A stretch of 64,000 bases of DNA, from assembly GCF_030013595.1 (NCBI RefSeq), contig NZ_CP122768.1, one strand, 5' to 3'. The translations under genes were made by a program, and so were the position numbers. Positions 2,681 through 54,947 of this stretch are shown here, piece by piece; within the stretch, counting starts at the first letter, position 1; each line of letters begins with the position of its first letter. A model generated the notes under the pieces. The model had not been told where the DNA came from and did no database searches. It saw only the letters and a list, made by a program, of their open reading frames with translations. The DNA is from Escherichia coli. Its GTDB lineage: Bacteria > Pseudomonadota > Gammaproteobacteria > Enterobacterales > Enterobacteriaceae.

Positions 2681-2694
2681 GTTCGTATACGAAC
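2681..2694. promoter_or_regulatory. Perfect 14-bp palindrome gttcgtatacgaac, candidate operator for the adjacent MarR-type regulator
   Basis: Exact inverted repeat 18 bp upstream of the ATG at 2712, inside the divergent promoter region. Confidence 0.45.
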
Positions 2695-2711
2695 AATTAA
2701 GAGAATAAACA

Positions 2712-3305
2712 ATGAGACTGATCGTCGGGATGACAGGGGCTACCGGTGCGCCTCTTGGGGTGGCATTACTGCAAGCGCTGCGGGAGATGCCGAATGTCGA
2801 GACTCATCTGGTGATGTCGAAGTGGGCGAAAACCACTATTGAACTGGAAACGCCTTACAGCGCTCGCGATGTTGCCGCCCTCGCAGACTTCAACCATAAC
2901 CCGGCGGATCAGGCGGCGACTATCTCTTCCGGCTCCTTTCGTACCGACGGCATGATCGTTATTCCATGCAGTATGAAAACGCTCGCCGGTATCCGCGCTG
3001 GTTACGCCGATGGTCTCGTGGGGCGCGCGGCGGACGTCGTGCTCAAAGAAGGCCGCAAACTGGTGCTGGTGCCGCGTGAAATGCCGCTTAGCACAATCCA
3101 TCTCGAAAATATGCTCGCACTTTCGCGCATGGGCGTGGCGATGGTGCCGCCGATGCCTGCCTTTTATAACCATCCCGAAACGGTAGATGACATTGTCCAC
3201 CACGTGGTAGCCCGCGTGCTGGATCAATTTGGCCTCGAACATCCTCACGCCAGGCGCTGGCAAGGATTGCCGCAGGCCCGGAATTTTTCTCAGGAGAATG
3301 AATAA
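2712..3305 (+). CDS. ecdB: UbiX/Pad1-family flavin prenyltransferase, subunit B of a hydroxyarylic acid (phenolic acid) decarboxylase
   Basis: Translation MRLIVGMTGATGAPLGVALLQAL... typical of UbiX-like proteins; first gene of a B-C-D operon; symbol by analogy to ecdBCD/kpdBCD naming, as recalled. Confidence 0.85.
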   Translation: MRLIVGMTGATGAPLGVALLQALREMPNVETHLVMSKWAKTTIELETPYSARDVAALADFNHNPADQAATISSGSFRTDGMIVIPCSMKTLAGIRAGYADGLVGRAADVVLKEGRKLVLVPREMPLSTIHLENMLALSRMGVAMVPPMPAFYNHPETVDDIVHHVVARVLDQFGLEHPHARRWQGLPQARNFSQENE

Positions 3306-4732: not shown

Positions 4733-4742
4733 GGAGAACAAG

Positions 4743-4979
4743 ATGATTTGTCCACGTTGTGCCGATGAACAGATTGAAGTGATGGCGAAATCGCCGGTGA
4801 AAGATGTCTGGACGGTCTACCAGTGCCAGCATTGCCTTTATACCTGGCGCGATACCGAACCGCTACGCCGCACTAGCCGCGAACATTATCCCGAAGCGTT
4901 CCGCATGACGCAGAAAGATATTGATGACGCGCCGATGGTGCCGAGCATCCCGCCGCTGCTGGCGGAAGGTAAGCGCTAA
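4743..4979 (+). CDS. ecdD: Small subunit D of the hydroxyarylic acid decarboxylase (Cys-rich, 78 aa)
   Basis: MICPRCADEQ...CQHC motif; position and size match the small D subunit of B-C-D operons; AAGGAG Shine-Dalgarno upstream. Confidence 0.75.
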   Translation: MICPRCADEQIEVMAKSPVKDVWTVYQCQHCLYTWRDTEPLRRTSREHYPEAFRMTQKDIDDAPMVPSIPPLLAEGKR

Positions 4980-14677: not shown

Positions 14678-15022
14678 ATGTCCGGCAAGCGTATCTCTCG
14701 TGAAAAACTGACGATTAAAAAAATGATCGATCTTTATCAAGCGAAATGCCCGCAGGCGTCAGCGGAGCCGGAGCATTACGACGCGCTGTTTGCCTACGCG
14801 CAAAAGCGGCTGGATAAATGTGTGTTCGGCGAAGAGAAACCAGCCTGTAAGCAGTGTCCGGTGCACTGTTACCAGCCTGCAAAGCGTGAAGAGATGAAAC
14901 AGATTATGCGTTGGGCCGGGCCGAGAATGCTGTGGCGTCATCCGATCTTAACCGTGCGTCATCTCATCGATGACAAGCGTCCGGTGCCGGAGTTGCCAGA
15001 AAAATATCGTCCAAAGAAATAA
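14678..15022 (+). CDS. ygbA: Small Cys-containing protein YgbA (nitrosative-stress regulon member)
   Basis: 114-aa ORF MSGKRISREKLTIKKMIDLYQAKCP...; GGAGG Shine-Dalgarno upstream. Confidence 0.88.
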   Translation: MSGKRISREKLTIKKMIDLYQAKCPQASAEPEHYDALFAYAQKRLDKCVFGEEKPACKQCPVHCYQPAKREEMKQIMRWAGPRMLWRHPILTVRHLIDDKRPVPELPEKYRPKK

Positions 15023-15025
15023 ATC

Positions 15026-15050
15026 TGCCGGAGAGCCATACTCTCCGGCA
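15026..15050. terminator. Hairpin between the convergent ygbA and molbindin gene (possible bidirectional terminator)
   Basis: Stem tgccggagag/ctctccggca with 5-nt loop; flanking U-runs are weak. Confidence 0.45.
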
Positions 15051-15060
15051 AATAAGGCGT

Positions 15061-15489
15061 TTACGCTTTGGTGGCAATCAGGATGGCTGATGCTTTGATC
15101 AATGCAATAACGCGCGAGCCAGTGGTGAGTTTCATTTCATCCTGACTTTCATTTGTTACCACTGCCACAATTTCAAAACCCGCATCCGTTTTGATATGGA
15201 CAGTGGCGTTCACTGCGCCTTCGGTGATTGTCGACACGCTGCCAGCAAACTGGTTGCGAGCAGAGAATTTCAGTCCACAGTCTTCCGTTGCCAGCGTGAC
15301 CCACGGGGCTTTAATCAGGGCAATCGCTTCTTTCCCTTTTGCCAGACCCAGAGCCTGCTGGCTGCTGTGAGTCACAATTGCCACCAGCTTTGCACCACCT
15401 GCCAGCGTCAGTTCTACTTCATCATTCACAGCGCCCATTGCTACTGCGCTAACTGTTCCGGTTAATTGATTTCTTGCTGAAACTGCCAT
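15061..15489 (-). CDS. Tandem-TOBE (Mop-like) molybdate/tungstate-binding molbindin, ~142 aa
   Basis: Two internal repeats each starting SARNQ(L/F)xGxV...; start at ATG 15489 preceded by AAGGAGG; lies 44 bp downstream of the fhlA stop on the same strand. Confidence 0.75.
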   Translation of the reverse strand: MAVSARNQLTGTVSAVAMGAVNDEVELTLAGGAKLVAIVTHSSQQALGLAKGKEAIALIKAPWVTLATEDCGLKFSARNQFAGSVSTITEGAVNATVHIKTDAGFEIVAVVTNESQDEMKLTTGSRVIALIKASAILIATKA

Positions 15490-15533
15490 ACTGCCTCCTT
15501 TCATTGAATGTTGATCGAGTATAACCACATCTG

Positions 15534-17612
15534 TTAAATCAATGCCGATTTATCAATTCCCAGCCGCTTCATCCGTGACAGCAGGGTCGTGCGTTTCAGC
15601 CCCAGACGTTGCGCAGCGCCTTTAGGCCCGGCAACCACGCCGTTGGTTTCTTTCAGCACGCGCACAATCAACTGATATTCATCTTCGCCCTCCTGGGCGA
15701 CAACCGTTGCGGCAGGCGGCGTTTCAGGCTCCGGTAAAGCAATATCTGGCAATGACAGCTGCAGCACGTTGCCGCGTGTTAGCAATACTGCGCGCTCAAT
15801 GACGTTTTCCAGTTCGCGTACGTTACCCGGCCACTCCATGTTGCTCAAGGTGCGCAGCGTCTCGGCAGGAATGCTGTCGATATTGCGCCCCAGACGACGG
15901 GCAATTTTGAAGGTAAAGGCTTTCGCCAGCAGCGGAATATCTTCCGGACGCTCGCGTAGTGGCGGCAGGTGAATCGGGAATACGTTCAGGCGGTAATAGA
16001 GATCGCTACGGAACTCTCGGTCGGCGACCATTTTTTTCAGATCGCGGTTAGTTGCGGCAATTAAACGTACGTCCGTCTGAATGATTTTGTTGCTGCCGAG
16101 ACGTTCAAACTCCTGTTCCTGCAATACACGCAGCAACTTCGGCTGTAACTCCAGTGGCATATCGCCCACTTCGTCGAGGAACAGAGAGCTTTTATCCGCC
16201 AGTTCAAAACGACCAATGCGCTGGGCGCTGGCACCGGTAAAAGCCCCACGCTCATGACCAAACAGATCGCTCTCCAGCAATCCGGCAGGCATCGCCGCGC
16301 AGTTCATTTTGACCATGCGGCGATTATTACGCCCACTGAGATTATGGATAGCACGGGCAATCAGCTCTTTACCCGTGCCAGTTTCACCGAGGATCAGCAC
16401 GGTACTGTCACTTTGCGCCACCATTTCAACTTGTTTAAGCACGCTGTACATGGCTTCGCTGCGGCCAATAATCTCGCCAAATTCACTATCAACATTGTTG
16501 AGCTGCTCGGTCAGGGCGAGGTTTTCATCAACCAGCCGTTCTTTCAGACGATGGATTTCCTGATAGGCGAGGGCGTTATCGACAGCGATTGCCACACGTT
16601 CGGCAATCTGGCGCAGTAAATTCAGATTGGTAGTGGTAAAGACTTTCTCTTCGCATTGCGCCAGTTTCAGCACGCCCAGCATGGTGTCGCCAGACATCAG
16701 CGGTAACAGGCACAAGGTTTGAATCTGGTTGCCCCAGGTGTCGAACAACATGCGTTCATAGGGGGCTAAATCGTCCCGCTCGTGGAGATTAATCAACAGC
16801 ATCTCTTTACTTTTGAAGACGCGTTCGGTGAGGGTTCCGGCTTCATCGACTTCGCTCTGTTCGTGGGCGGGATGCTGTTTATCAAGATAGTGAGTGGAGT
16901 AGATGTTGAGTTTGTTTTTACGGTGGCTGCGTAAGACGATGCTGATATCGTCAATGTCGAAGTAGTAATGGATTTCTTTGGCGACTTCGCTGACCAGTTC
17001 GTCCATATCCAGGCGGGAAAGCACCGCGTTGGTAATGGCAACCAGGATGCGGAAGTTATCGCGTTCCCGGCATAACAACTCATAGTCGACATTGTTAACG
17101 ACGCGGCTCTGGATTTGTTCGGTGACGACAGAAACGATCTGCGTAAATGTTTGCAGACGATTGAACTCTTTTTCGCTCCAGGGGCGATCGTCATAACGAA
17201 TAAATTCACAGCCACCAAAAATATGCCCTTCCGCCGCCAGTGGCATCAGGCAATAGTGACCAAATTTGGGGTATAGCCCACCTGCGGCCAGCTGCGGCCA
17301 GGTTTCACAAAATTCTTCGTAACTGCAATGCAGCGTATCAGGGCGCGACAAAATGCTGCGTACCGGACCGTGTGCCAGAACAGTTTCGTCTTCATATTTA
17401 ATGGGGGTGTCTTTTTCACGCGACGCGTAATAAGACGCACGTTGAGTCTGCGCTTGCCACAACACAATAGCCGCGTTGTCGGCGAGCGCAGAACGCTTTA
17501 CCAGTAGCGAAAGAGCCTCACACAGCGAGGCCAGATCGGGCTGCTGCAATAGTGTCCGAGTGATGTCGAACAACCCTTGTTGTCCGAGATCACTCATCGG
17601 TGTATATGACAT
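15534..17612 (-). CDS. fhlA: Formate hydrogenlyase transcriptional activator FhlA (sigma-54 dependent, GAF + AAA+ + HTH)
   Basis: Translation MSYTPMSDLGQQGLFDITRTLLQQ... with GAFTGA sigma-54 interaction motif; the track start at 17648 is a 5' over-extension. Confidence 0.95.
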   Translation of the reverse strand: MSYTPMSDLGQQGLFDITRTLLQQPDLASLCEALSLLVKRSALADNAAIVLWQAQTQRASYYASREKDTPIKYEDETVLAHGPVRSILSRPDTLHCSYEEFCETWPQLAAGGLYPKFGHYCLMPLAAEGHIFGGCEFIRYDDRPWSEKEFNRLQTFTQIVSVVTEQIQSRVVNNVDYELLCRERDNFRILVAITNAVLSRLDMDELVSEVAKEIHYYFDIDDISIVLRSHRKNKLNIYSTHYLDKQHPAHEQSEVDEAGTLTERVFKSKEMLLINLHERDDLAPYERMLFDTWGNQIQTLCLLPLMSGDTMLGVLKLAQCEEKVFTTTNLNLLRQIAERVAIAVDNALAYQEIHRLKERLVDENLALTEQLNNVDSEFGEIIGRSEAMYSVLKQVEMVAQSDSTVLILGETGTGKELIARAIHNLSGRNNRRMVKMNCAAMPAGLLESDLFGHERGAFTGASAQRIGRFELADKSSLFLDEVGDMPLELQPKLLRVLQEQEFERLGSNKIIQTDVRLIAATNRDLKKMVADREFRSDLYYRLNVFPIHLPPLRERPEDIPLLAKAFTFKIARRLGRNIDSIPAETLRTLSNMEWPGNVRELENVIERAVLLTRGNVLQLSLPDIALPEPETPPAATVVAQEGEDEYQLIVRVLKETNGVVAGPKGAAQRLGLKRTTLLSRMKRLGIDKSALI

Positions 17613-20952: not shown

Positions 20953-21303
20953 TCACTCCTGGTCTATTTCTATCCGCCGAATCTGTAAACCGTCGTCTGC
21001 CACAATCTGTAGCATGTCACCATGACACTGTGGACAGCGGCGGACGCGCTGGGTCAGTAGCGTCACATACTGTTGGCATGTTTCACACCAGCATTCGGCC
21101 TCTTGTTCTTCGAGGTGCAGTTTACAACCTTCCGCCACGCTGCCGCGGCAAACCAGATCAAAACAAAAGGCAAGAGAGCTGGTTTCGACACAAGAAAATG
21201 CGCCAATTTTGAGCCAGACCCCAGTTACGCGTTTTGCGCCGTGTTTTGCGGCCTGCTGTTCGATCAATTCCAGTGCCCGTTGGCAGAGGGTTATTTCGTG
21301 CAT
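20953..21303 (-). CDS. hypA: Hydrogenase nickel-incorporation protein HypA
   Basis: 116-aa protein MHEITLCQRALELIEQQ... with CxxC...CxxC zinc site. Confidence 0.92.
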   Translation of the reverse strand: MHEITLCQRALELIEQQAAKHGAKRVTGVWLKIGAFSCVETSSLAFCFDLVCRGSVAEGCKLHLEEQEAECWCETCQQYVTLLTQRVRRCPQCHGDMLQIVADDGLQIRRIEIDQE

Positions 21304-21334
21304 ATCGCCTCCCATTAACTATTGCCAGCTACAA

Positions 21335-21350
21335 GCAATAATTGTGCCAG
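21335..21350 (-). promoter_or_regulatory. Sigma-54 (-24/-12) promoter for the hyp operon
   Basis: Reverse strand reads CTGGCACaattaTTGC, a near-perfect TGGCAC-N5-TTGC match. Confidence 0.7.
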
Positions 21351-21375
21351 TGTTGATTATCCCTGCGGTGAATAA

Positions 21376-21416
21376 TGTCGATGATGTCGAAATGACACGT
21401 CGACACGGCGACGAAA
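21376..21416. promoter_or_regulatory. FhlA upstream activating sequence shared by the divergent hyp and hyc promoters
   Basis: tgtcgatgatgtcgaaatgacacgtcgacacggcgacgaaa: TGTCG/CGACA-rich repeats between the two sigma-54 promoters. Confidence 0.6.
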
Positions 21417-21462
21417 TTCATCTTTAGCTTAAAAATCGTTTTAATAACAATGAATTAAAAGT

Positions 21463-21478
21463 TGGCACAGAAAATGCT
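21463..21478 (+). promoter_or_regulatory. Sigma-54 (-24/-12) promoter for the hyc operon
   Basis: tTGGCACagaaaaTGCt with 10 nt between GG and GC, ~37 bp upstream of the hycA ATG. Confidence 0.65.
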
Positions 21479-21514
21479 TAAAGCTGGCATCTCTGTTAAA
21501 CGGGTAACCTGACA

Positions 21515-21976
21515 ATGACTATTTGGGAAATAAGCGAGAAAGCCGATTACATCGCACAGCGGCATCGTCGCCTACAGGACCAGTGGCACATCTACTGCAA
21601 TTCGCTGGTTCAGGGGATCACGTTATCGAAAGCGCGCCTGCATCACGCCATGAGCTGCGCGCCGGACAAAGAACTCTGTTTCGTCCTTTTTGAACATTTT
21701 CGCATTTACGTCACCCTGGCGGATGGCTTTAACAGCCACACCATCGAGTATTACGTCGAAACAAAAGATGGTGAAGACAAACAGCGGATTGCGCAGGCGC
21801 AACTGAGCATTGACGGCATGATTGATGGCAAGGTCAACATCCGCGATCGCGAACAGGTTCTGGAACACTATCTCGAAAAAATCGCTGGCGTTTACGACAG
21901 CTTATACACCGCCATTGAAAACAATGTGCCGGTGAATTTAAGCCAACTGGTAAAGGGACAAAGCCCGGCAGCATGA
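21515..21976 (+). CDS. hycA: Formate hydrogenlyase regulatory protein HycA
   Basis: 153-aa ORF MTIWEISEKADYIAQRHRRLQDQ... Confidence 0.93.
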   Translation: MTIWEISEKADYIAQRHRRLQDQWHIYCNSLVQGITLSKARLHHAMSCAPDKELCFVLFEHFRIYVTLADGFNSHTIEYYVETKDGEDKQRIAQAQLSIDGMIDGKVNIRDREQVLEHYLEKIAGVYDSLYTAIENNVPVNLSQLVKGQSPAA

Positions 21977-22100
21977 GCTGAGGCTTTGCCCGTTTTGCAG
22001 GCGTTACGCCTGTTTGGGGATGGGCGTGTCGATGAGTGTCGAAAATGACATTTCATCGGCATGTTTTCGTCAAAAATGACAATCACCTGAGGAATGCCTG

Positions 22101-22712
22101 GTGAATCGTTTTGTAATTGCTGACTCCACGCTCTGTATCGGCTGCCACACCTGTGAGGCCGCCTGTTCAGAGACGCATCGCCAGCACGGCCTGCAATCAA
22201 TGCCGCGCCTGCGAGTGATGCTCAATGAAAAAGAATCTGCGCCGCAGCTCTGTCACCACTGTGAAGATGCGCCCTGCGCGGTGGTCTGCCCGGTTAACGC
22301 CATCACCCGCGTTGATGGGGCCGTGCAGTTGAATGAAAGTCTGTGCGTAAGCTGCAAACTGTGCGGCATCGCCTGCCCGTTTGGCGCAATTGAATTTTCC
22401 GGCAGCCGTCCGCTGGATATTCCGGCAAACGCCAATACCCCGAAAGCGCCACCGGCACCGCCTGCTCCGGCGCGTGTCAGCACATTGCTTGACTGGGTGC
22501 CAGGTATTCGCGCGATCGCCGTCAAATGTGACCTTTGTAGCTTTGATGAACAAGGTCCGGCCTGCGTGCGGATGTGCCCGACTAAAGCCCTGCATCTGGT
22601 GGATAACACCGATATCGCCCGCGTCAGCAAACGTAAGCGTGAGCTGACTTTTAACACGGACTTTGGCGATCTCACCTTGTTTCAGCAGGCTCAAAGTGGA
22701 GAGGCTAAATGA
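22101..22712 (+). CDS. hycB: Formate hydrogenlyase subunit HycB (4Fe-4S ferredoxin-type)
   Basis: 203-aa ORF with multiple CxxCxxCxxxCP motifs. Confidence 0.94.
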   Translation: MNRFVIADSTLCIGCHTCEAACSETHRQHGLQSMPRLRVMLNEKESAPQLCHHCEDAPCAVVCPVNAITRVDGAVQLNESLCVSCKLCGIACPFGAIEFSGSRPLDIPANANTPKAPPAPPAPARVSTLLDWVPGIRAIAVKCDLCSFDEQGPACVRMCPTKALHLVDNTDIARVSKRKRELTFNTDFGDLTLFQQAQSGEAK

Positions 22713-24535
22713 GCGCAATTTCCCTGATCAATAGCGGCGTGGCGTGGTTTGTCGCCGCCGCTGTTCTGGCATTTCTCTTTTCTTTTCAAAAGGCGCTAAG
22801 CGGCTGGATAGCCGGAATTGGCGGCGCGGTTGGTAGCCTGTATACGGCAGCCGCGGGCTTCACTGTACTGACTGGCGCGGTTGGCGTGAGCGGTGCGCTG
22901 TCGCTGGTAAGCTACGATGTGCAAATCTCTCCGCTTAACGCGATTTGGCTGATTACGCTCGGCCTGTGCGGTCTGTTTGTCAGCCTCTACAACATTGACT
23001 GGCATCGCCACGCGCAGGTGAAGTGCAACGGCTTGCAGATCAATATGTTGATGGCTGCCGCCGTCTGCGCCGTCATCGCCAGCAACCTCGGCATGTTCGT
23101 GGTAATGGCTGAAGTCATGGCCTTGTGTGCGGTGTTCCTTACCAGCAACAGCAAAGAGGGCAAACTGTGGTTTGCGCTGGGGCGTCTTGGCACTCTGCTG
23201 CTGGTGATTGCTTGCTGGCTGCTGTGGCAGCGTTACGGCACGCTGGATCTGCGCCTGCTGGATATGCGTATGCAACAGCTGCCGCTCGGTTCCGATATCT
23301 GGCTGCTCGGTGTGATTGGCTTTGGCCTGCTGGCCGGGATTATTCCGCTGCACGGCTGGGTGCCGCAGGCACATGCTAACGCCTCTGCGCCAGCTGCCGC
23401 GTTGTTTTCTACGGTGGTGATGAAAATCGGCCTGCTGGGCATTTTAACCCTGTCGCTGCTGGGCGGTAACGCACCGCTGTGGTGGGGGATCGCGCTGCTG
23501 GTGCTCGGCATGATCACCGCGTTCGTCGGCGGTCTGTATGCGCTGATGGAGCACAACATCCAGCGCCTGCTGGCTTACCACACCCTGGAAAATATCGGCA
23601 TTATCCTGCTGGGGCTGGGCGCTGGCGTAACGGGTATCGCGCTCGAACAACCGGCGCTGATTGCTCTTGGCCTGGTCGGTGGTCTGTACCATCTGCTTAA
23701 TCATAGCCTGTTCAAAAGCGTACTTTTCCTCGGGGCGGGGAGCGTCTGGTTCCGTACCGGTCATCGCGATATCGAAAAACTCGGTGGTATTGGCAAGAAA
23801 ATGCCGGTTATCTCCATCGCCATGTTAGTCGGGCTGATGGCAATGGCTGCGTTGCCGCCGCTGAACGGGTTTGCCGGGGAATGGGTTATCTATCAATCCT
23901 TCTTCAAACTGAGCAATAGTGGCGCGTTTGTTGCCCGTCTGCTGGGGCCGCTGCTCGCTGTGGGGCTGGCAATTACCGGTGCGCTGGCGGTGATGTGTAT
24001 GGCGAAAGTCTATGGCGTCACGTTCCTCGGCGCGCCGCGTACCAAAGAAGCCGAAAACGCCACCTGTGCGCCGCTCCTGATGAGCGTAAGCGTGGTGGCA
24101 CTGGCGATTTGCTGCGTCATTGGCGGTGTTGCTGCGCCGTGGCTGCTGCCGATGCTCTCTGCTGCTGTACCTCTGCCGCTGGAGCCTGCTAACACCACCG
24201 TTTCTCAACCCATGATCACGTTGCTGCTGATTGCCTGCCCGCTGCTGCCATTCATCATTATGGCGATTTGCAAAGGCGATCGTTTGCCGTCGCGTTCCCG
24301 CGGCGCGGCCTGGGTGTGCGGCTACGACCATGAAAAATCAATGGTGATTACTGCTCACGGTTTTGCCATGCCGGTGAAACAGGCGTTTGCGCCGGTGCTG
24401 AAACTGCGCAAATGGCTGAATCCGGTGTCGCTGGTACCGGGCTGGCAGTGTGAGGGGAGTGCGTTGCTGTTCCGCCGGATGGCGCTGGTTGAACTGGCGG
24501 TACTGGTGGTGATTATTGTTTCACGAGGAGCCTGA
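22709..24535 (+). CDS. hycC: Formate hydrogenlyase membrane subunit HycC (NuoL/M-like antiporter-type)
   Basis: 608-aa polytopic membrane ORF; start overlaps the hycB stop. Confidence 0.94.
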   Translation: MSAISLINSGVAWFVAAAVLAFLFSFQKALSGWIAGIGGAVGSLYTAAAGFTVLTGAVGVSGALSLVSYDVQISPLNAIWLITLGLCGLFVSLYNIDWHRHAQVKCNGLQINMLMAAAVCAVIASNLGMFVVMAEVMALCAVFLTSNSKEGKLWFALGRLGTLLLVIACWLLWQRYGTLDLRLLDMRMQQLPLGSDIWLLGVIGFGLLAGIIPLHGWVPQAHANASAPAAALFSTVVMKIGLLGILTLSLLGGNAPLWWGIALLVLGMITAFVGGLYALMEHNIQRLLAYHTLENIGIILLGLGAGVTGIALEQPALIALGLVGGLYHLLNHSLFKSVLFLGAGSVWFRTGHRDIEKLGGIGKKMPVISIAMLVGLMAMAALPPLNGFAGEWVIYQSFFKLSNSGAFVARLLGPLLAVGLAITGALAVMCMAKVYGVTFLGAPRTKEAENATCAPLLMSVSVVALAICCVIGGVAAPWLLPMLSAAVPLPLEPANTTVSQPMITLLLIACPLLPFIIMAICKGDRLPSRSRGAAWVCGYDHEKSMVITAHGFAMPVKQAFAPVLKLRKWLNPVSLVPGWQCEGSALLFRRMALVELAVLVVIIVSRGA

Positions 24536-24537
24536 GA

Positions 24538-25461
24538 ATGAGTGTTTTATATCCGTTAATTCAGGCGCTGGTGTTATTTGCCGTTGCGCCGCTGCTCTCC
24601 GGTATAACCCGCGTGGCGCGCGCCCGCTTGCATAACCGTCGCGGGCCGGGCGTGTTGCAGGAGTATCGCGACATTATCAAACTGCTGGGCCGCCAGAGTG
24701 TTGGCCCGGATGCCTCCGGCTGGGTGTTCCGCCTGACGCCGTATGTGATGGTGGGCGTCATGCTGACTATCGCTACTGCGCTGCCGGTGGTGACCGTTGG
24801 TTCTCCGCTGCCGCAGCTGGGCGATTTGATCACCTTGCTGTATCTCTTTGCCATCGCGCGTTTCTTCTTTGCCATTTCTGGTCTGGATACCGGTAGCCCG
24901 TTTACTGCTATCGGCGCGAGCCGTGAAGCGATGCTTGGCGTGCTGGTCGAACCGATGCTGCTGCTTGGTCTGTGGGTTGCCGCACAGGTTGCCGGTTCCA
25001 CCAACATCAGCAACATCACCGACACCGTTTATCACTGGCCGCTGAGCCAGAGCATCCCGCTGGTGCTGGCGCTTTGTGCCTGTGCGTTCGCCACTTTTAT
25101 CGAAATGGGCAAACTGCCGTTCGACCTGGCGGAAGCCGAGCAGGAGTTGCAGGAAGGGCCGCTCTCTGAATACAGCGGTAGCGGCTTTGGCGTCATGAAA
25201 TGGGGTATCAGCCTGAAACAGCTGGTGGTGTTGCAGATGTTCGTCGGGGTGTTTATTCCGTGGGGACAAATGGAAACCTTCACCGTCGGTGGGCTGCTGC
25301 TGGCGCTGGTGATTGCCATCGTCAAACTGGTGGTTGGCGTCCTGGTTATCGCGCTGTTCGAAAACAGCATGGCCCGTCTGCGTCTTGATATTACTCCGCG
25401 CATTACCTGGGCTGGGTTTGGCTTTGCATTTTTAGCGTTCGTCTCCTTGCTGGCGGCGTGA
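24538..25461 (+). CDS. hycD: Formate hydrogenlyase membrane subunit HycD (NuoH-like)
   Basis: 307-aa membrane ORF. Confidence 0.94.
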   Translation: MSVLYPLIQALVLFAVAPLLSGITRVARARLHNRRGPGVLQEYRDIIKLLGRQSVGPDASGWVFRLTPYVMVGVMLTIATALPVVTVGSPLPQLGDLITLLYLFAIARFFFAISGLDTGSPFTAIGASREAMLGVLVEPMLLLGLWVAAQVAGSTNISNITDTVYHWPLSQSIPLVLALCACAFATFIEMGKLPFDLAEAEQELQEGPLSEYSGSGFGVMKWGISLKQLVVLQMFVGVFIPWGQMETFTVGGLLLALVIAIVKLVVGVLVIALFENSMARLRLDITPRITWAGFGFAFLAFVSLLAA

Positions 25462-25478
25462 TTAAAGAGAGTTTGAGC

Positions 25479-27188
25479 ATGTCTGAAGAAAAATTAGGTC
25501 AACATTATCTCGCCGCGCTGAATGAGGCATTTCCCGGCGTCGTGCTGGACCACGCCTGGCAGACCAAAGATCAGCTGACTGTCACCGTAAAGGTGAACTA
25601 CCTGCCGGAAGTGGTGGAGTTTCTTTACTACAAACAGGGTGGCTGGCTGTCGGTGCTGTTTGGCAACGACGAACGCAAACTGAATGGTCATTACGCCGTT
25701 TACTACGTGCTGTCGATGGAGAAGGGCACTAAGTGTTGGATTACGGTTCGCATCGAAGTTGACGCCAACAAACCGGAGTATCCGTCCGTGACGCCGCGCG
25801 TTCCGGCGGCGGTGTGGGGCGAGCGCGAAGTGCGCGATATGTACGGTTTGATTCCGGTTGGTCTGCCGGATGAACGTCGTCTGGTGCTGCCGGATGACTG
25901 GCCGGATGAACTTTATCCGCTGCGTAAAGACAGCATGGATTATCGTCAACGTCCGGCACCGACTACCGATGCTGAAACCTACGAGTTCATCAACGAACTG
26001 GGCGACAAGAAAAACAACGTCGTTCCGATTGGTCCGCTGCACGTCACTTCTGACGAACCGGGCCACTTCCGTCTGTTCGTCGATGGCGAAAACATTATCG
26101 ACGCAGACTACCGCCTGTTCTATGTCCATCGCGGCATGGAAAAACTGGCGGAAACCCGCATGGGTTACAACGAAGTGACCTTCCTCTCTGACCGTGTGTG
26201 CGGGATCTGCGGCTTTGCTCACAGCACCGCCTACACCACGTCGGTGGAAAACGCGATGGGTATTCAGGTGCCAGAACGTGCGCAGATGATCCGCGCCATT
26301 CTGCTGGAGGTAGAACGCCTGCACTCGCATCTGCTCAACCTCGGCCTCGCCTGTCACTTTACCGGCTTCGACTCCGGCTTTATGCAGTTCTTCCGCGTGC
26401 GTGAAACCTCCATGAAAATGGCAGAGATCCTTACCGGTGCGCGTAAAACCTACGGCCTGAACCTGATCGGCGGGATTCGTCGCGATCTGCTGAAAGATGA
26501 CATGATCCAGACCCGTCAACTGGCACAGCAGATGCGTCGTGAAGTGCAGGAGCTGGTGGATGTGCTGCTGAGCACACCGAACATGGAACAGCGCACCGTC
26601 GGCATTGGTCGTCTGGACCCGGAAATTGCCCGCGACTTCAGTAACGTCGGCCCGATGGTCCGTGCCAGCGGTCACGCCCGCGATACCCGCGCCGATCACC
26701 CGTTTGTTGGTTATGGCCTGCTGCCAATGGAAGTCCACAGCGAGCAGGGCTGCGACGTTATTTCGCGTCTGAAAGTGCGTATTAACGAAGTCTATACCGC
26801 GCTGAACATGATCGACTACGGTCTGGATAATCTGCCGGGCGGCCCGCTGATGGTGGAAGGCTTTACCTACATTCCGCACCGTTTTGCGCTGGGCTTTGCC
26901 GAAGCGCCGCGCGGCGATGATATCCACTGGAGCATGACCGGCGACAACCAGAAGCTGTACCGCTGGCGCTGCCGTGCGGCGACCTACGCGAACTGGCCGA
27001 CCCTGCGCTACATGCTGCGCGGCAACACCGTTTCCGATGCGCCGCTGATTATCGGTAGCCTGGACCCTTGCTACTCCTGTACCGACCGCATGACGGTGGT
27101 CGATGTACGTAAGAAGAAGAGCAAAGTGGTGCCGTACAAAGAACTCGAGCGTTACAGCATTGAGCGTAAAAACTCGCCGCTGAAATAA
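25479..27188 (+). CDS. hycE: Hydrogenase 3 large subunit HycE ([NiFe] catalytic subunit)
   Basis: Starts MSEEKLGQHYLAALNEAFPG; CxxC near the N-terminus and a C-terminal Ni-binding region; the track ORF is extended 7 codons. Confidence 0.95.
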   Translation: MSEEKLGQHYLAALNEAFPGVVLDHAWQTKDQLTVTVKVNYLPEVVEFLYYKQGGWLSVLFGNDERKLNGHYAVYYVLSMEKGTKCWITVRIEVDANKPEYPSVTPRVPAAVWGEREVRDMYGLIPVGLPDERRLVLPDDWPDELYPLRKDSMDYRQRPAPTTDAETYEFINELGDKKNNVVPIGPLHVTSDEPGHFRLFVDGENIIDADYRLFYVHRGMEKLAETRMGYNEVTFLSDRVCGICGFAHSTAYTTSVENAMGIQVPERAQMIRAILLEVERLHSHLLNLGLACHFTGFDSGFMQFFRVRETSMKMAEILTGARKTYGLNLIGGIRRDLLKDDMIQTRQLAQQMRREVQELVDVLLSTPNMEQRTVGIGRLDPEIARDFSNVGPMVRASGHARDTRADHPFVGYGLLPMEVHSEQGCDVISRLKVRINEVYTALNMIDYGLDNLPGGPLMVEGFTYIPHRFALGFAEAPRGDDIHWSMTGDNQKLYRWRCRAATYANWPTLRYMLRGNTVSDAPLIIGSLDPCYSCTDRMTVVDVRKKKSKVVPYKELERYSIERKNSPLK

Positions 27189-27197
27189 GGAATCGCC

Positions 27198-27740
27198 ATG
27201 TTTACCTTTATCAAAAAAGTTATCAAAACCGGCACGGCGACCTCATCTTATCCGCTGGAGCCGATTGCGGTTGATAAAAACTTCCGTGGTAAGCCAGAGC
27301 AGAACCCGCAGCAGTGCATCGGCTGCGCGGCCTGCGTCAATGCCTGCCCGTCAAACGCCTTAACGGTTGAAACTGACATCGCCACAGGAGAGCTGGCCTG
27401 GGAGTTTAATCTCGGGCGCTGCATCTTCTGTGGACGCTGCGAAGAAGTTTGCCCGACGGCGGCGATCAAACTGTCGCAAGAGTACGAACTGGCGGTGTGG
27501 AAGAAAGAAGACTTCCTGCAACAGTCCCGCTTCGCGCTGTGCAACTGCCGCGTCTGCAATCGTCCTTTCGCCGTCCAGAAAGAGATCGACTACGCCATTG
27601 CGCTGCTTAAGCACAATGGCGACAGCCGCGCGGAAAACCACCGCGAAAGCTTTGAGACTTGCCCGGAATGTAAGCGCCAGAAATGCCTGGTGCCGTCCGA
27701 CCGTATTGAACTGACTCGCCATATGAAAGAGGCCATCTGA
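27198..27740 (+). CDS. hycF: Formate hydrogenlyase Fe-S subunit HycF
   Basis: 180-aa ORF with two CxxCxxCxxxCP ferredoxin motifs. Confidence 0.94.
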
Positions 27741-28507
27741 TGAGCAATTTATTAGGCCCCCGTGACGCCAACGGCATTCCGGTCCCGATGACGGTGGATG
27801 AATCCATCGCCAGCATGAAGGCGTCGTTACTGAAAAAAATCAAACGTTCTGCCTACGTTTACCGCGTGGACTGCGGCGGCTGCAACGGCTGCGAAATCGA
27901 AATTTTCGCCACGCTTTCGCCGCTGTTTGATGCAGAACGCTTCGGCATTAAAGTCGTTCCTTCACCGCGTCATGCGGATATTTTACTGTTTACCGGCGCG
28001 GTCACCCGTGCAATGCGATCCCCTGCGCTGCGTGCGTGGCAGTCCGCGCCGGACCCGAAAATTTGTATCTCCTACGGTGCCTGCGGTAACAGCGGCGGGA
28101 TCTTCCACGATCTCTACTGCGTGTGGGGCGGTACGGATAAAATCGTCCCGGTAGATGTCTACATCCCTGGCTGCCCGCCAACGCCTGCCGCTACGCTATA
28201 CGGCTTTGCAATGGCGCTCGGCCTGCTGGAGCAGAAAATTCACGCCCGTGGGCCGGGTGAGCAGGATGAACAACCGGCAGAAATTCTGCATGGCGATATG
28301 GTGCAGCCGCTGCGCGTGAAAGTGGATCGCGAAGCACGCCGCCTGGCGGGTTATCGTTACGGTCGTCAGATTGCCGATGATTACCTTACACAGTTAGGGC
28401 AGGGCGAAGAACAGGTTGCACGCTGGCTGGAAGCGGAAAACGATCCGCGTCTGAACGAGATTGTCAGCCATCTGAATCATGTTGTTGAAGAGGCGCGTAT
28501 CCGATGA
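27740..28507 (+). CDS. hycG: Hydrogenase 3 small subunit HycG
   Basis: 255-aa [19 protein letters not shown]... Confidence 0.94.
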
Positions 28508-28914
28508 GTGAAAAGGTGGTGTTCAGTCAACTGAGCCGTAAATTTATTGATGAGAACGATGCCACGCCCGCCGAGGCGCAGCAGGTGGTCTATTACAGCC
28601 TGGCGATTGGTCACCACCTTGGGGTTATCGATTGCCTGGAAGCGGCGCTCACCTGTCCGTGGGATGAATATCTGGCATGGATTGCCACTCTGGAGGCGGG
28701 CAGCGAAGCCCGCCGCAAAATGGAAGGCGTGCCGAAATATGGTGAGATTGTCATCGACATTAACCATGTGCCGATGCTGGCCAACGCATTCGATAAAGCC
28801 CGGGCAGCGCAAACTTCGCAGCAGAAGGAATGGAGTACAATGCTGTTAAGTATGCTGCATGATATTCATCAGGAAAACGCCATCTATTTGATGGTGAGGA
28901 GATTGCGTGACTGA
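28504..28914 (+). CDS. hycH: Formate hydrogenlyase maturation protein HycH
   Basis: 136-aa ORF; 4-bp overlap with hycG. Confidence 0.92.
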
Positions 28915-29377
28915 CGTTTTACTCTGTGTTGGCAATAGCATGATGGGCGATGATGGCGCAGGCCCGCTACTGGCGGAAAAGTGCGCCGCCGCGCCGAAAG
29001 GTCACTGGGTGGTGATTGACGGCGGTAGTGCACCGGAAAACGACATTGTCGCTATTCGCGAACTGCGCCCGACACGACTGCTGATTGTCGACGCCACGGA
29101 TATGGGGCTAAACCCCGGCGAGATCCGCATCATCGATCCGGATGATATCGCCGAGATGTTTATGATGACTACCCATAACATGCCGTTGAACTACCTTATC
29201 GACCAGTTAAAAGAAGACATTGGCGAAGTGATTTTCCTCGGCATCCAGCCGGATATCGTCGGCTTTTACTACCCGATGACCCAGCCGATTAAAGATGCGG
29301 TAGAAACCGTTTATCAACGACTGGAAGGCTGGGAAGGGAATGGCGGATTCGCGCAGTTAGCGGTGGAAGAAGAGTAG
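28907..29377 (+). CDS. hycI: Hydrogenase 3 maturation endopeptidase HycI
   Basis: 156-aa [23 protein letters not shown]... Confidence 0.93.
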   Translation: MTDVLLCVGNSMMGDDGAGPLLAEKCAAAPKGHWVVIDGGSAPENDIVAIRELRPTRLLIVDATDMGLNPGEIRIIDPDDIAEMFMMTTHNMPLNYLIDQLKEDIGEVIFLGIQPDIVGFYYPMTQPIKDAVETVYQRLEGWEGNGGFAQLAVEEE

Positions 29378-29401
29378 TTTTTCAGTAAGGAATTCAGGGG
29401 A

Positions 29402-30175
29402 TTGAACATCAGAACAGGGATGTGCGCTTTTTTATTGAGCTTAGTGCTGCCTGCACAGGCCACCAGCTTTACCGAATATCTGCCGATGAGTGACAGCGAA
29501 TACGCGCAAAAGCGGGCGCTGAAACCTCTCCTGACCATGCCTTATGATGCCGAGCAAAACTGGCATTTTAGAAAAGTCGGCGTTGCTGGCGTGACGCTTG
29601 AAAAGATGCCAAATGATGATAGTGAATGGCAATTGAACGGTAAAGATCGCGCCGGTAAATCCTGGTCTGTGCCTGTGGGGGTGCTGCAAAATATGGCGGG
29701 TAATGCGCAACTTTACCGTGCCGATCTTGATCGTAACGGCATTCAGGATCTAGTTATCTGGCGGGGTATTTCAGGAAATGGTCTGGCACCTAACGCGTTT
29801 TTGATTCTGATGACCTTTAATCAGCAAGGTCGCCCGTGTGTTTTTCAGTCCGATGGTTTTTATACCGCAAGTGAAACTGGCATTGATGATTTGCTGGATT
29901 TACAAAGGAATGGCCACACGCAATTGCTGGATATGCAGTTTGATTCCGGTTACTGGATAACCAGTCTGTATCAGGTAAAAGACGCCAAATGGCAGCGTGT
30001 TCACGGCTGGTTTGGCAAGTTAAGCTATCCCGCGCTCACGCGTTTTACTTATACCCCCAACCGTAAACTCGTCCTCAAACCCATCGCCGGGCGCGACCCG
30101 CAATCGGAAGATCTGGCGCTGACGCAGCGTTGCTTGATAAAGGGGGATGTGCTTTATGGGGTGAATCAGAACTGA
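29402..30175 (+). CDS. Uncharacterised predicted secreted protein (~257 aa) with N-terminal signal peptide and two Asp-rich D-x-D/Q-x-N-G loops
   Basis: n-region with Arg, hydrophobic core CAFLLSLVL, AQA|TS cleavage site; motifs ADLDRNGIQDLVIW and LDLQRNGHTQLLD; start ambiguous between TTG 29402 and ATG 29420; only 24 bp after the hycI stop with no terminator. Confidence 0.6.
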   Translation: MNIRTGMCAFLLSLVLPAQATSFTEYLPMSDSEYAQKRALKPLLTMPYDAEQNWHFRKVGVAGVTLEKMPNDDSEWQLNGKDRAGKSWSVPVGVLQNMAGNAQLYRADLDRNGIQDLVIWRGISGNGLAPNAFLILMTFNQQGRPCVFQSDGFYTASETGIDDLLDLQRNGHTQLLDMQFDSGYWITSLYQVKDAKWQRVHGWFGKLSYPALTRFTYTPNRKLVLKPIAGRDPQSEDLALTQRCLIKGDVLYGVNQN

Positions 30176-30237
30176 CTTTTTGCAGAGTGGCTATGTGGAT
30201 TTTGGGGGTAATTATATAGCGTACAAGTGTTTACATA

Positions 30238-30266
30238 TTGTGAACTTTGATTTGATGAGCTATAGT
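30238..30266 (+). promoter_or_regulatory. Candidate sigma-70 promoter for the HigBA-like pair (-35 ttgtga, 17-bp spacer, -10 tatagt)
   Basis: Hexamers in an AT-rich spacer ~70 bp upstream of the toxin ATG. Confidence 0.4.
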
Positions 30267-30336
30267 TTCCGAACACATAAGGATAGAACTCGCAGATGTG
30301 GCTGTTTACTTACTATAAGGAAGTTAAAACTTAAAA

Positions 30337-30648
30337 ATGCACATCATTTCTAAAGCGCCATTTGAAGAGTGTGCGCGCAAATATCCTAACGACGCTCTGG
30401 CTCTACACTCATTGTATCGGGTTATTAAGGAAACGGATTTTTCTACACCAGAAGAAATGCGAACGGCGTTTCCCAACCTCGACAATTTTAGATATCGCAA
30501 CAAATGGTACGTTCTGGATGTCGGCGGGAACAATCTTAGGGTTATTGCCTACATAAACTTTGTTAATAAGCGGTTCTTTGTGAAGCACATAACGAATCAC
30601 GCAGAGTATGACAAACTGACACGTTACTACAGAGAGAACAAAGAATGA
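30337..30648 (+). CDS. HigB-family type II toxin (RelE/ParE-fold mRNA interferase), 103 aa
   Basis: MHIISKAPFEECARKYP...FPNLDNFRYRNKWYVLDVGGNNLRVIAYI... resembles HigB/YgjN-type toxins; toxin gene precedes the antitoxin with a 4-bp ATGA overlap. Confidence 0.8.
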   Translation: MHIISKAPFEECARKYPNDALALHSLYRVIKETDFSTPEEMRTAFPNLDNFRYRNKWYVLDVGGNNLRVIAYINFVNKRFFVKHITNHAEYDKLTRYYRENKE

Positions 30649-31064
30649 CTGCTAATGCTGCACGCGCTGTTAAAGCAACAAGAGAACTGGTCAATGCAGT
30701 CCCCTTTCTGGGAGGTAGTGACTCAGAAGATGATTATCGTGAAGCACTGGAACTGGTCGAATATTTGATTGAAGAAGATGACACCAATCCACTTATCGAC
30801 TTTCTGGCGAGCCGCATTGCAGAGTATGAAAGCAACAACGAAAAGTTTGCAGAGTTCGACAAAGCCGTTGCTGCAATGCCGGTTGGCGTGGCGTTACTTC
30901 GTACGCTGATTGATCAACATAATCTGACCTACGCGGATTTGAAGAACGAAATCGGCTCTAAATCCCTGGTCAGTCAGATTTTGTCTGGGCAACGATCCCT
31001 GACGATATCCCACATTAAGGCACTTTCAGCCCGATTTGGTGTTAAGCCGGAATGGTTTCTTTGA
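30645..31064 (+). CDS. HigA-family antitoxin (XRE-type HTH at the C-terminus), 139 aa
   Basis: ...GSKSLVSQILSGQRSLTISHIKALSARFGV... HTH segment; translationally coupled to the upstream toxin. Confidence 0.8.
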   Translation: MTANAARAVKATRELVNAVPFLGGSDSEDDYREALELVEYLIEEDDTNPLIDFLASRIAEYESNNEKFAEFDKAVAAMPVGVALLRTLIDQHNLTYADLKNEIGSKSLVSQILSGQRSLTISHIKALSARFGVKPEWFL

Positions 31065-31090
31065 TTTTGACTGATGCCAAACCCAAGATT

Positions 31091-31120
31091 GCCCGATGCG
31101 CAACGCTTATCGGGCTTTCT
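31091..31120. terminator. Bidirectional hairpin terminator between the HigA-like gene and convergent ascB
   Basis: Stem gcccgat/atcgggc (31091-31115) followed by tttctt; A-rich on the opposite side. Confidence 0.6.
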
Positions 31121-31142
31121 TGGTTCGTGCGACGGTAGTTAC

Positions 31143-34292: not shown

Positions 34293-35303
34293 ATGACGAC
34301 GATGCTGGAAGTGGCGAAGCGCGCCGGGGTTTCAAAAGCGACCGTTTCCCGCGTGCTTTCAGGTAATGGCTACGTCAGCCAGGAGACTAAAGATCGCGTG
34401 TTTCAGGCGGTAGAAGAGAGCGGTTACCGTCCAAACTTGCTGGCGCGCAATCTGTCGGCGAAGAGTACTCAGACGCTGGGGCTGGTAGTGACCAACACAC
34501 TTTACCACGGCATTTATTTTAGTGAATTACTGTTTCATGCCGCGCGAATGGCGGAAGAGAAAGGGCGACAGTTGCTATTGGCAGATGGTAAACACAGCGC
34601 CGAAGAAGAGCGCCAGGCGATTCAGTATCTGCTGGATTTGCGCTGCGACGCCATTATGATTTACCCGCGTTTTTTAAGCGTGGATGAGATTGATGACATC
34701 ATTGACGCACACAGTCAGCCGATAATGGTGCTTAATCGCCGCCTGCGCAAAAACAGCAGCCATAGCGTCTGGTGCGATCATAAACAGACCAGCTTTAACG
34801 CCGTGGCAGAGTTGATAAACGCCGGACATCAGGAGATTGCTTTCCTTACCGGCTCGATGGATTCCCCCACCAGCGTTGAACGTCTTGCCGGGTATAAAGA
34901 CGCGCTGGCGCAGCATAGTATTGCGCTCAATGAAAAACTTATCGCTAACGGTAAATGGACGCCCGCCAGCGGGGCCGAAGGGGTAGAAACGTTGCTCGAA
35001 CGTGGGGCTAAATTTAGCGCGTTAGTTGCCAGTAACGACGATATGGCGATAGGTGCGATGAAAGCGTTACACGAGCGCGGCGTAGCGGTGCCAGAGCAGG
35101 TGTCAGTTATCGGATTCGATGATATCGCTATTGCCCCCTATATCGTTCCGGCGCTCTCCAGCGTAAAAATTCCGGTGACTGAGATGATTCAGGAAATTAT
35201 TGGACGGCTGATTTTTATGCTCGATGGCGGGGATTTCTCACCGCCGAAAACCTTCAGCGGAAAATTGATCTGCCGCGACTCACTCATTGCCCTTTCGCGA
35301 TAA
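34293..35303 (+). CDS. ascG: LacI/GalR-family repressor of the asc operon
   Basis: N-terminal HTH MTTMLEVAKRAGVSKATVSRVLSG; start taken at ATG 34293; upstream in-frame ATGs at 34284/34290 cannot be excluded. Confidence 0.88.
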   Translation: MTTMLEVAKRAGVSKATVSRVLSGNGYVSQETKDRVFQAVEESGYRPNLLARNLSAKSTQTLGLVVTNTLYHGIYFSELLFHAARMAEEKGRQLLLADGKHSAEEERQAIQYLLDLRCDAIMIYPRFLSVDEIDDIIDAHSQPIMVLNRRLRKNSSHSVWCDHKQTSFNAVAELINAGHQEIAFLTGSMDSPTSVERLAGYKDALAQHSIALNEKLIANGKWTPASGAEGVETLLERGAKFSALVASNDDMAIGAMKALHERGVAVPEQVSVIGFDDIAIAPYIVPALSSVKIPVTEMIQEIIGRLIFMLDGGDFSPPKTFSGKLICRDSLIALSR

Positions 35304-35307
35304 ACAT

Positions 35308-35346
35308 TGTCATCACATGTCATCGTCACTAGTGTCGATGACATCG
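35308..35346. promoter_or_regulatory. FhlA-UAS-like repeat cluster upstream of hydN
   Basis: tgtcatcacatgtcatcgtcactagtgtcgatgacatcg resembles the TGTCG/CGACA repeats of the hyc-hyp UAS. Confidence 0.4.
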
Positions 35347-35451
35347 TTTTTCCTGCATTGCAGAATTTAATTTCTTTAAATAACAGTAAATTAAAAACTG
35401 GCATGATTTGTGAGTGTATCGGCGCATTAACTGTCATTGCTGGAGAATTTG

Positions 35452-36131: not shown

Positions 36132-38372
36132 ATGGCAAAAAACACATCTTGCGGTGTCCAACTGCGTATTCGTGGCAAAGTGCAGGGCGTCGGTTTTCGT
36201 CCGTTTGTCTGGCAGCTGGCACAGCAATTAAATCTTCACGGCGATGTCTGTAATGACGGCGATGGAGTGGAAGTCCGGCTGCTGGAAGACCCGGAAACGT
36301 TTCTTGTGCAGTTGCATCAGCACTGCCCGCCGCTGGCGCGTATTGATAGCGTCGAGCGTGAGCCGTTTATCTGGTCACAACTGCCCACCGAGTTCACTAT
36401 CCGTCAGAGCACAGGCGGAGTCATGAATACGCAAATTGTTCCCGATGCCGCGACTTGTCCTGCCTGTCTTGCTGAAATGAATACCCCGGGCGAGCGGCGT
36501 TATCGTTATCCGTTTATCAACTGTACCCACTGCGGCCCACGTTTCACCATTATTCGCGCCATGCCTTACGACCGCCCGTTTACCGTGATGGCGGCGTTTC
36601 CGCTGTGTTCGGCCTGTGACAAAGAATATCGCGACCCGCTCGATCGTCGCTTCCACGCCCAGCCGGTGGCCTGCCCGGAGTGTGGCCCCCATCTTGAATG
36701 GGTAAGTCATGGTGAACATGCAGAACAAGAGGCGGCATTACAGGCAGCTATCGCACAGTTAAAAATGGGCAACATTGTCGCCATCAAAGGGATTGGCGGA
36801 TTTCATCTCGCCTGCGATGCGCGTAACAGTAACGCGGTGGCGACACTTCGGGCGCGCAAACATCGCCCGGCGAAACCGCTGGCGGTCATGTTGCCAACGG
36901 CAGAAGGTTTACCAGACGCTGCGCGCCAGTTGCTCACCACACCCGCCGCGCCGATTGTGCTGGTGGATAAAAAAAACGTTCCTGAGCTTTGTGATGATAT
37001 CGCCCCTGGCCTTAATGAAGTCGGGGTGATGTTGCCTGCGAACCCGCTCCAGCATTTGCTGTTACAGGAACTGCAATGCCCGCTGGTGATGACCTCCGGC
37101 AACCTGAGCGGTAAACCACCGGCTATCAGCAACGAACAGGCGCTGGCGGATTTGCAGGGCATTGCCGACGGATTCTTGATACATAACCGCGACATCGTGC
37201 AGCGGATGGATGATTCGGTGGTGCGCGAAAGCGGCGAAATGCTGCGCCGTTCGCGGGGGTATGTGCCGGATGCGCTGGCTTTGCCTCCGGGCTTTAAAAA
37301 TGTTCCGCCTGTGCTGTGTCTCGGCGCGGATCTGAAAAATACCTTCTGCCTGGTGCGCGGTGAACAAGCGGTGTTGAGTCAGCATCTGGGCGATTTAAGT
37401 GACGATGGCATCCAGATGCAGTGGCGCGAAGCGTTACGCCTGATGCAAAACATCTACGATTTTACCCCGCAATACGTTGTGCATGACGCGCATCCGGGCT
37501 ATGTCTCCAGCCAGTGGGCGCGCGAAATGAATCTGCCGACGCAAACGGTGCTGCATCATCATGCTCATGCGGCGGCGTGTCTGGCAGAACATCACTGGCC
37601 ACTGGATGGCGGTGATGTCATTGCGTTGACGCTCGACGGTATCGGTATGGGGGAGAACGGCGCTTTGTGGGGCGGCGAATGCCTGCGGGTGAACTATCGC
37701 GAATGTGAGCACCTGGGCGGCTTGCCTGCGGTGGCGCTTCCGGGGGGCGATTTGGCTGCAAAGCAGCCGTGGCGTAACCTGCTGGCGCAGTGCCTGCGCT
37801 TTGTGCCGGAGTGGCAGAATTACCCTGAAACGACAAGTGTGCAACAGCAAAACTGGAGCGTGCTGGCGCGGGCCATTGAGCGTGGAATTAACGCGCCGCT
37901 GGCGTCATCGTGTGGGCGTTTGTTCGATGCTGTGGCGGCGGCACTGGGCTGTGCGCCAGCCACGTTAAGTTATGAAGGTGAAGCGGCTTGTGCTCTGGAG
38001 GCGCTCGCAGCCTCATGCGACGGAGTGACGCATCCGGTGACGATGCCGCTGGTGGACAATCAACTGGATCTCGCCACTTTCTGGCAGCAGTGGCTGAACT
38101 GGCAGGCACCGGTTAATCAACGCGCGTGGGCGTTTCATGATGCGCTGGCGCAGGGTTTTGCCGCGTTGATGCGTGAGCAGGCCACGATGCGCGGTATCAC
38201 TACGCTGGTATTTAGCGGTGGGGTTATTCATAACCGATTGCTGCGTACACGCCTGGCGCATTATCTCGCTGATTTCACATTGCTATTTCCACAGAGTTTA
38301 CCGGCGGGTGATGGCGGCTTGTCTCTGGGGCAGGGGGTTATTGCTGCGGCGCGCATCCTGCATGCTGCATAG
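36132..38372 (+). CDS. hypF: [NiFe]-hydrogenase maturation carbamoyltransferase HypF
   Basis: Starts [30 protein letters not shown] (acylphosphatase domain), then two CxxC Zn-finger pairs, YrdC-like and Kae1-like domains; the track start at 36060 is a GTG over-extension. Confidence 0.94.
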
Positions 38373-38449
38373 TGGCGGATGTGGCGTAACTAAGCGTAAA
38401 AAGAGCGCGGACAGTCCCCTCGCCCTTTGGGCGAGGGAGAAAACCATGC

Positions 38450-54944: not shown

Positions 54945-54947
54945 TTT

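Follow-up and report, generated by a model that had tools for sequence, protein, structure and literature searches.

The divergent hypA-hycA control region of an Escherichia coli chromosome, with two sigma-54 promoters and two putative FhlA-type enhancers

In Escherichia coli, the hyc genes for hydrogen production and the hyp genes for hydrogenase maturation are controlled in response to formate from one divergent intergenic region. A sequence-only reading of 144 bp of this locus described two back-to-back sigma-54 promoters sharing one FhlA enhancer. Here, the locus was analyzed within the window, i.e., the whole 64,000-nt stretch of E. coli chromosome (NZ_CP122768.1) in which it lies.

A 501-bp query around the control region matched 5425 of 5426 complete E. 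coli genomes, where the flanking annotation is hypA and hycA. The hypA-hycA intergenic region is divergent, chromosomal, and 211 bp long, and the genes of the regulon around it are as follows:

15537-17612, minus strand: fhlA, formate-sensing sigma-54 activator; 692/692 aa aligned at 99.4% identity by tblastn with K-12 FhlA
20953-21303, minus strand: hypA, first gene of hypABCDE-fhlA; 100% identity to K-12 HypA, 116 aa
21515-21976, plus strand: hycA, FhlA anti-activator and first gene of the hyc operon; 100% identical to K-12 HycA (PF11046 homologues)
22101-29374, plus strand: hycB to hycI, hydrogenase-3 structural and maturation genes; full length, 98.9-100% identity to K-12

An upstream in-frame ATG at 21315, listed as the hypA start among the open reading frames, was rejected, the true start being the ATG at 21303. 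FhlA, HypA-E, HycA-I, HydN, and HypF of the window match their K-12 counterparts over the full length at 97.7-100% identity, except that the last 7 C-terminal residues of HypF do not align (743/750 residues). As the last gene of the hyp operon (hypABCDE-fhlA), fhlA is under its own control, and with the anti-activator gene at the head of hyc, the locus forms both a positive and a negative feedback loop.

Two sigma-54 promoters, each oriented toward its own gene, lie inside the intergenic region:

21334-21350, minus strand: hyp sigma-54 promoter CTGGCACAATTATTGCT, with GG at 21348-21347, GC at 21336-21335, and a predicted start at ~21323
21462-21478, plus strand: hyc sigma-54 promoter TTGGCACAGAAAATGCT, with GG at 21464-21465, GC at 21476-21477, and a predicted start at ~21489

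Both promoters were found to the base where the sequence-only reading had placed them. The near-consensus hyp element on the reverse strand is CTGGCACAATTATTGC, read on the minus strand from 21350 to 21335, and the hyc element on the forward strand, given as TGGCAC-N6-TGC, is TGGCACAGAAAATGC at 21463-21477; it may equivalently be written TGGCAC-N5-aTGC, and its full match form is TGGCAC-N5-aTGCT. In both, GG and GC are separated by the 10 bp of TGGCAC-N5-TTGCW, and hyp agrees at all specified positions, being the sole zero-mismatch match to TGGCAC-N5-TTGC within the 64 kb. Mutations in GG or GC had been named as what would speak against the promoters, and none was present, as both dinucleotides are unchanged in hyp and hyc alike. 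The predicted starts precede the start codons of hypA and hycA by 20 and 26 nt, distances that agree with the table of K-12 hypA and hycA promoters (PMC4591121).

A scan with sigma-54 and FhlA matrices, which had been proposed as a check, was run with an RpoN matrix of 186 sites and an FhlA matrix of 13 sites (PMC7658346, Table 2). The FhlA matrix was built on the sites of Schlensog 1994 and Leonhartsberger 2000 (PMC7658346). With the RpoN matrix, hyp ranked first in the window at 19.0 bits, the best score of all 100 shuffles being 18.7, and hyc ranked third at 15.6 bits, which carries no significance by itself because the mean top score of the shuffles was 14.7. The FhlA matrix placed the enhancer between the promoters second in the window. 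As the K-12 counterparts of these sites were probably in the training sets of both matrices, the scores are supportive but not independent, and those of the FhlA matrix are partly circular. Loose patterns occurred about as often as expected in the 64 kb (one-mismatch sigma-54 sites, 10 observed versus 8.2 expected; TGTCG, 154 versus 147), and the degenerate FhlA pattern, with 14 matches versus 7.8 expected, was likewise taken as being at expectation. Since window-wide counts are at chance, the case rests on position, orientation, and conservation, and it is the local cluster of TGTCG that carries the signal, rather than the word itself.

The K-12 sites TTGGCACAAAAAATGCT (hycA) and CTGGCACAATTATTGCT (hypA) are sigma-54 ChIP-seq peaks (PMC4591121) and targets in genomic SELEX (PMC8743547), and the orthologous promoters of Salmonella are bound and sigma-54 dependent (PMC3844500). 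At the hyp promoter, the window has the same sequence as the K-12 site verified by ChIP-seq; at the hyc promoter, it differs from K-12 by one spacer base. The arrangement was rightly described as known: it is the canonical hyp/hyc control region, with sites verified by ChIP in K-12 and Salmonella (PMC4591121, PMC3844500).

A further sigma-54-like sequence, TGGCACATCTACTGCA, lies inside hycA (21584-21599, plus strand, 15.05 bits) and was rejected as a promoter. It coincides with the codons W24-H-I-Y-C28, and its -12 GC is replaced by GT (TGT, Cys) in about a quarter of 81 species, so we regard it as a coding coincidence. The two promoters are also spanned by a 27-nt imperfect inverted repeat (78%; 21323-21349 and 21463-21489), which continues beyond the -12 elements and takes in another CTGGCA at either predicted start, giving TGGCAC..TGCTT..AGCTGGCA on both sides. 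These second copies were rejected as alternative promoters, as a correctly spaced GC is missing and the copies are conserved in Escherichia only; they may be a vestige of an inverted duplication. An Rfam scan gave no hit in or near the control region, and in a pattern scan for sigma-70 promoters and terminators the counts equaled the shuffle expectation.

Between the promoters, the TGTCG/CGACA-repeat enhancer described earlier was recovered as a cluster of TGTCG, TGACA, and CGACA, here called UAS1:

21376-21419, no strand assigned: UAS1, FhlA-type enhancer TGTCGATGATGTCGAAATGACACGTCGACACGGCGACGAAATTC, the second-ranked FhlA-matrix match of the window at 16.1 bits

Its repeats are TGTCG at 21376 and 21385, TGACA at 21393, and CGACA at 21401 (TGTCG on the minus strand), followed by CGGCGACGAAATTC, and its best match to the FhlA matrix is at 21376-21389. 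The FhlA consensus TGWC-RAWRAT-GWCA is cited in PMC4987338 and PMC7658346; open papers also give the consensus CATTTCGTACGAAATG and describe FhlA binding on one face of the DNA. The core of UAS1 (21376-21404) is kept across genera, and its right part (21406-21419) is kept within Escherichia and close relatives only.

The hyc side of the spacer contains an additional element:

21445-21457, plus strand: IHF-like site TAACAATGAATTA, located in the AT-rich linker that separates UAS1 from the hyc promoter and matching WATCAANNNNTTR at 12 of 13 positions

The orthologous site is a perfect AATCAATTAATTA in Klebsiella and Kluyvera and is also perfect in Enterobacter. No such site was found on the hyp side.

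A very similar layout is seen in the window at the hydN-hypF control region (35296-35414), where an FhlA-type TGTCR repeat array is followed by an AT-rich module and then TGGCA. Immediately ahead of TGGCA, hydN and hyc both carry AATAACA(A/G)T(G/A)AATTAAAA, a module that at hyc contains the IHF-like TAACAATGAATTA, and from UAS1 up to the hyc promoter, the elements are collinear with those at hydN, deviating by no more than 4 bp. Given this collinearity and the IHF-like module, UAS1 appears to form a standard unit together with the IHF-like site and the hyc promoter. In contrast to hypA-hycA, hydN has a single promoter, and neither a divergent partner nor a second enhancer was seen there. The hydN sigma-54 promoter of the window, CTGGCATGATTTGTGAG, has one mismatch to K-12. 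At fdhF in K-12, the UAS likewise consists of TTTCGT/GTCA...TGAC repeats upstream of a sigma-54 promoter, whereas this unlinked locus has another linker with no recognizable IHF module of the hyc/hydN type. More distantly, norR-norVW in the window and enhancers of the glnA/ntrBC type share the principle of a bEBP bound to repeated sites ~80-150 bp upstream and acting by looping; at norR-norV, only a single divergent promoter depends on sigma-54, whereas at hypA-hycA, both do. The norV sigma-54 promoter (41067-41082, minus strand) is the second-best RpoN match in the window.

A second array of FhlA-type sites lies in the hycA-hycB spacer, outside the 144 bp considered earlier:

22026-22082, no strand assigned: UAS2, second FhlA-type enhancer, composed of TGTCGATGAGTGTCGAAAATGACA (22026-22050) and CATGTTTTCGTCAAAAATGACA (22059-22082)

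UAS2 contains TGTCGAAAATGACA (22037-22050), which at 17.47 of a possible 17.64 bits ranks first in the window with the FhlA matrix, and CGTCAAAAATGACA, which scores 12.2. UAS1 and UAS2 are the two best FhlA-matrix matches in the 64 kb and fit the site model TGWC-RAWRAT-GWCA with the half-site CATTTCGT/ACGAAATG (16.1 and 17.5 bits, respectively, with a matrix probably trained there). The left half of UAS2 equals TGTCGATGA-TGTCGAAA-TGACA of UAS1, save for two single-base insertions. UAS2 is identical to K-12, and its cores are invariant in 15 genera while the hycA-hycB spacer ranges from 73 to 152 bp, which makes it the best-conserved noncoding DNA at the locus. It lies inside the hyc transcription unit and ends ~20 bp before the hycB start codon (22101), with the part that varies least directly adjoining the ribosome-binding site of hycB. 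Two conserved putative FhlA-type enhancers instead of one are present at the locus, and this is the substantive correction to the sequence-only reading.

Just past the hycA stop and before UAS2, two stable hairpins are predicted at 21959-22024 (-35.7 kcal/mol, z = -2.4). The segment includes CAGGCGTTACGCCTG followed by TTTGGGG and is absent in genera with a short hycA-hycB spacer; the hairpins may act as a partial terminator or stabilizer.

Conservation of the control region was assessed in species-representative genomes scanned with a HycA alignment, which yielded 80 loci from ~20 genera and, with the window, 81 Enterobacteriaceae sequences. Divergent hypA followed by hycA-hycB was kept in all 80 loci, and GG and GC were invariant in both promoters in 81/81 sequences. 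The spacer alignment shows five conserved blocks. Two are on the hyp side, namely, the hypA ribosome-binding site and the promoter elements (-12 GCAATAA and -24 TGCCA); the others are the enhancer core TGTCGAT..TGTCGAAATGACACGTCGA (21376-21404), a portion of the AT-rich linker, and the promoter elements of hyc (-24 TGGCA and -12 TGCTTA).

Within E. coli, alleles down to 91.7% identity have GG and GC of both promoters and the whole 21374-21420 block unchanged, with variation confined to the linker and the hyc spacer. The comparison with K-12, also proposed beforehand, gave the same picture. Genes and the 211-bp spacing are the same, and no base differs in the hyp promoter, UAS1, or UAS2. The differences are four intergenic substitutions, three in the linker (21438 G/T, 21439 T/C, and 21452 G/A) and one within the spacer of the hyc promoter (21470 G/A). 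All four are natural alleles of other E. coli or Escherichia species; E. albertii, E. whittamii, and other E. coli share the A-to-G change in the hyc spacer, which brings a small gain in RpoN matrix score (from 15.0 to 15.4). With GG and GC unchanged, UAS1 as in K-12, and the regulon genes at full length, the control region is intact, as had been stated, and ordinary in this strain.

The position of the enhancers relative to the promoters bears on which enhancer serves which operon. The conserved core of UAS1 is centered at ~-99 from the hyc start and at ~-67 from the hyp start, and the whole E. coli UAS1 block covers ~-70 to -113 and ~-53 to -96, respectively. The UAS of hydN (35305-35345) is centered at ~-97 and that of fdhF at ~-104, and UAS2 is at ~-700 to -760 from the hyp start. 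The -24 to -24 distance between the hyp and hyc promoters is 116 bp in the window and takes only values of 94, 104-105, or 114-118 bp in the 81 spacers, and across genera, the UAS1 anchor shifts relative to each promoter by steps of ~10-11 bp, so that helical phase is kept among both promoters and UAS1. As few independent indel events underlie this quantized spacing and the UAS repeats may shift the alignment by one unit, a helical-phase constraint is suggestive only. The center of the full UAS1 block lies only ~8 bp off the point halfway between the two predicted starts. Together with the quantized spacing, this would fit contacts of UAS1 with both promoters, but also neighboring complexes that constrain each other sterically.

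From -24 to -24 distances and whole-turn shifts of UAS1 such as these, one FhlA oligomer could be positioned toward either closed complex. Carried further, both promoters and UAS1 might form one phase-locked nucleoprotein unit in which UAS1 is bidirectional and UAS2 sets the hyp:hyc ratio, a speculative idea that we consider rather unlikely.

We consider it very probable that the locus is the canonical formate-regulon hypA-hycA divergent region, in which two sigma-54 promoters are combined with a UAS1-IHF-hyc module and UAS2 likely serves hyp. That the motifs arose by chance and mark no sigma-54/FhlA control region at all would agree with the window-wide counts of loose patterns and with an hyc score that, alone, is within the shuffle range. 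Chance does not account for the position and orientation of the elements, the invariance of GG/GC and the enhancer cores across genera, or the published ChIP for the same sequences; conservation and ChIP-seq effectively refute this explanation, which we hold to be extremely improbable.

The earlier claim of one shared enhancer stands insofar as UAS1 does lie between both promoters, with the ~10-11-bp steps keeping phase on both sides. As a description of the whole locus, it is not supported, given a second and better-conserved enhancer at 22026-22082 that also scores higher than UAS1. UAS1 and the IHF-like site are laid out for hyc as at hydN, the IHF-like site being on that side only, and the core, at ~-67 from hyp, departs from the -97 to -104 seen at fdhF, hydN, and hyc. 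That UAS1 alone activates both hyp and hyc, with nothing else needed, is thus doubtful. Alternatively, UAS2 might be an auxiliary downstream enhancer for hyc or an FhlA-bound element modulating hycB rather than the hyp enhancer, as it lies inside the hyc transcription unit next to the hycB ribosome-binding site and sigma-54 enhancers act from either side and at a distance (PMC3844500). However, with the RpoN matrix no sigma-54 promoter is detectable between UAS2 and hycB, and divergent hypA is kept in all 80 loci; this constant synteny means that comparative data cannot part a link of UAS2 to hyp from a link to hyc. We regard this alternative as very unlikely.

Both alternatives would also be at odds with older work. 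Schlensog, Lutz, and Böck in 1994 and Hopper et al. in 1994 reportedly found FhlA binding in the hyc-hyp intergenic region as well as between hycA and hycB, are said to have assigned the hycA-hycB site to hyp activation, and reportedly located an IHF site in the stretch that separates the hyc promoter from its UAS. In the open full-text literature, we found no paper stating which enhancer serves hyp. On the basis of the 1994 studies, the most likely target of UAS2 is the hyp promoter, at a distance of ~700 bp, and UAS2 may reinforce hyc, too.

The elements suggest how the preferred arrangement, with UAS2 acting on hyp and the UAS1-IHF module on hyc, would operate; here, the sequence shows the elements, how well they are conserved, and that they are intact, and the occupancy by FhlA and IHF and the pairing of enhancers with promoters are what we infer. 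Judging from the protein families, RNA polymerase with sigma-54 would sit as a closed complex on each promoter. Formate-activated FhlA would bind the arrays of TGTCG/TGACA sites, which contain CGAAAT, and oligomerize there, reach sigma-54 by DNA looping, and open the promoters through ATP hydrolysis. UAS1 and the IHF-like bend site (21445-21457) would correspond to the standard module for hyc, with a UAS at ~-100, then IHF, then the promoter, and IHF would aid looping on the hyc side.

Beyond annotation, the result matters little: it documents that, in this strain, the formate-inducible control over the synthesis and maturation of hydrogenase-3 is intact. The control region extends beyond the 144 bp first considered, and when intactness is scored or hyc/hyp are engineered for hydrogen production, UAS2 and the IHF-like linker should be included.

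Several segments elsewhere in the window set it apart from K-12. Between rpoS and ygbN, a 2.9-kb segment (2084-4978) absent from K-12 encodes a MarR-family regulator, a UbiX-like flavoprotein, and a UbiD-family decarboxylase; we take it to be the known polymorphic rpoS-mutS region. Another inserted segment absent from K-12, between hycI and ascB (29399-31137), carries a HigB-like toxin gene (30337-30645) and an HTH_3 antitoxin-like gene (30645-31061), as well as a 257-aa ORF with no Pfam match (29402-30172). The hypF-norW spacer (38354-38448) does not align with K-12 and is 95 bp long here versus ~157 bp in K-12. Near the right end of the window, Rfam matches comprise four tRNAs, MicA, and STnc490 (54852-55475; 58318-58389; 59578-59701). 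Finally, a 513-bp segment absent from K-12 lies between ygbA and fhlA (15020-15532) and encodes, on the minus strand (15064-15489), a 142-aa protein with two TOBE (molbindin/Mop-like) domains, which adjoins the activator of a molybdenum-dependent regulon.
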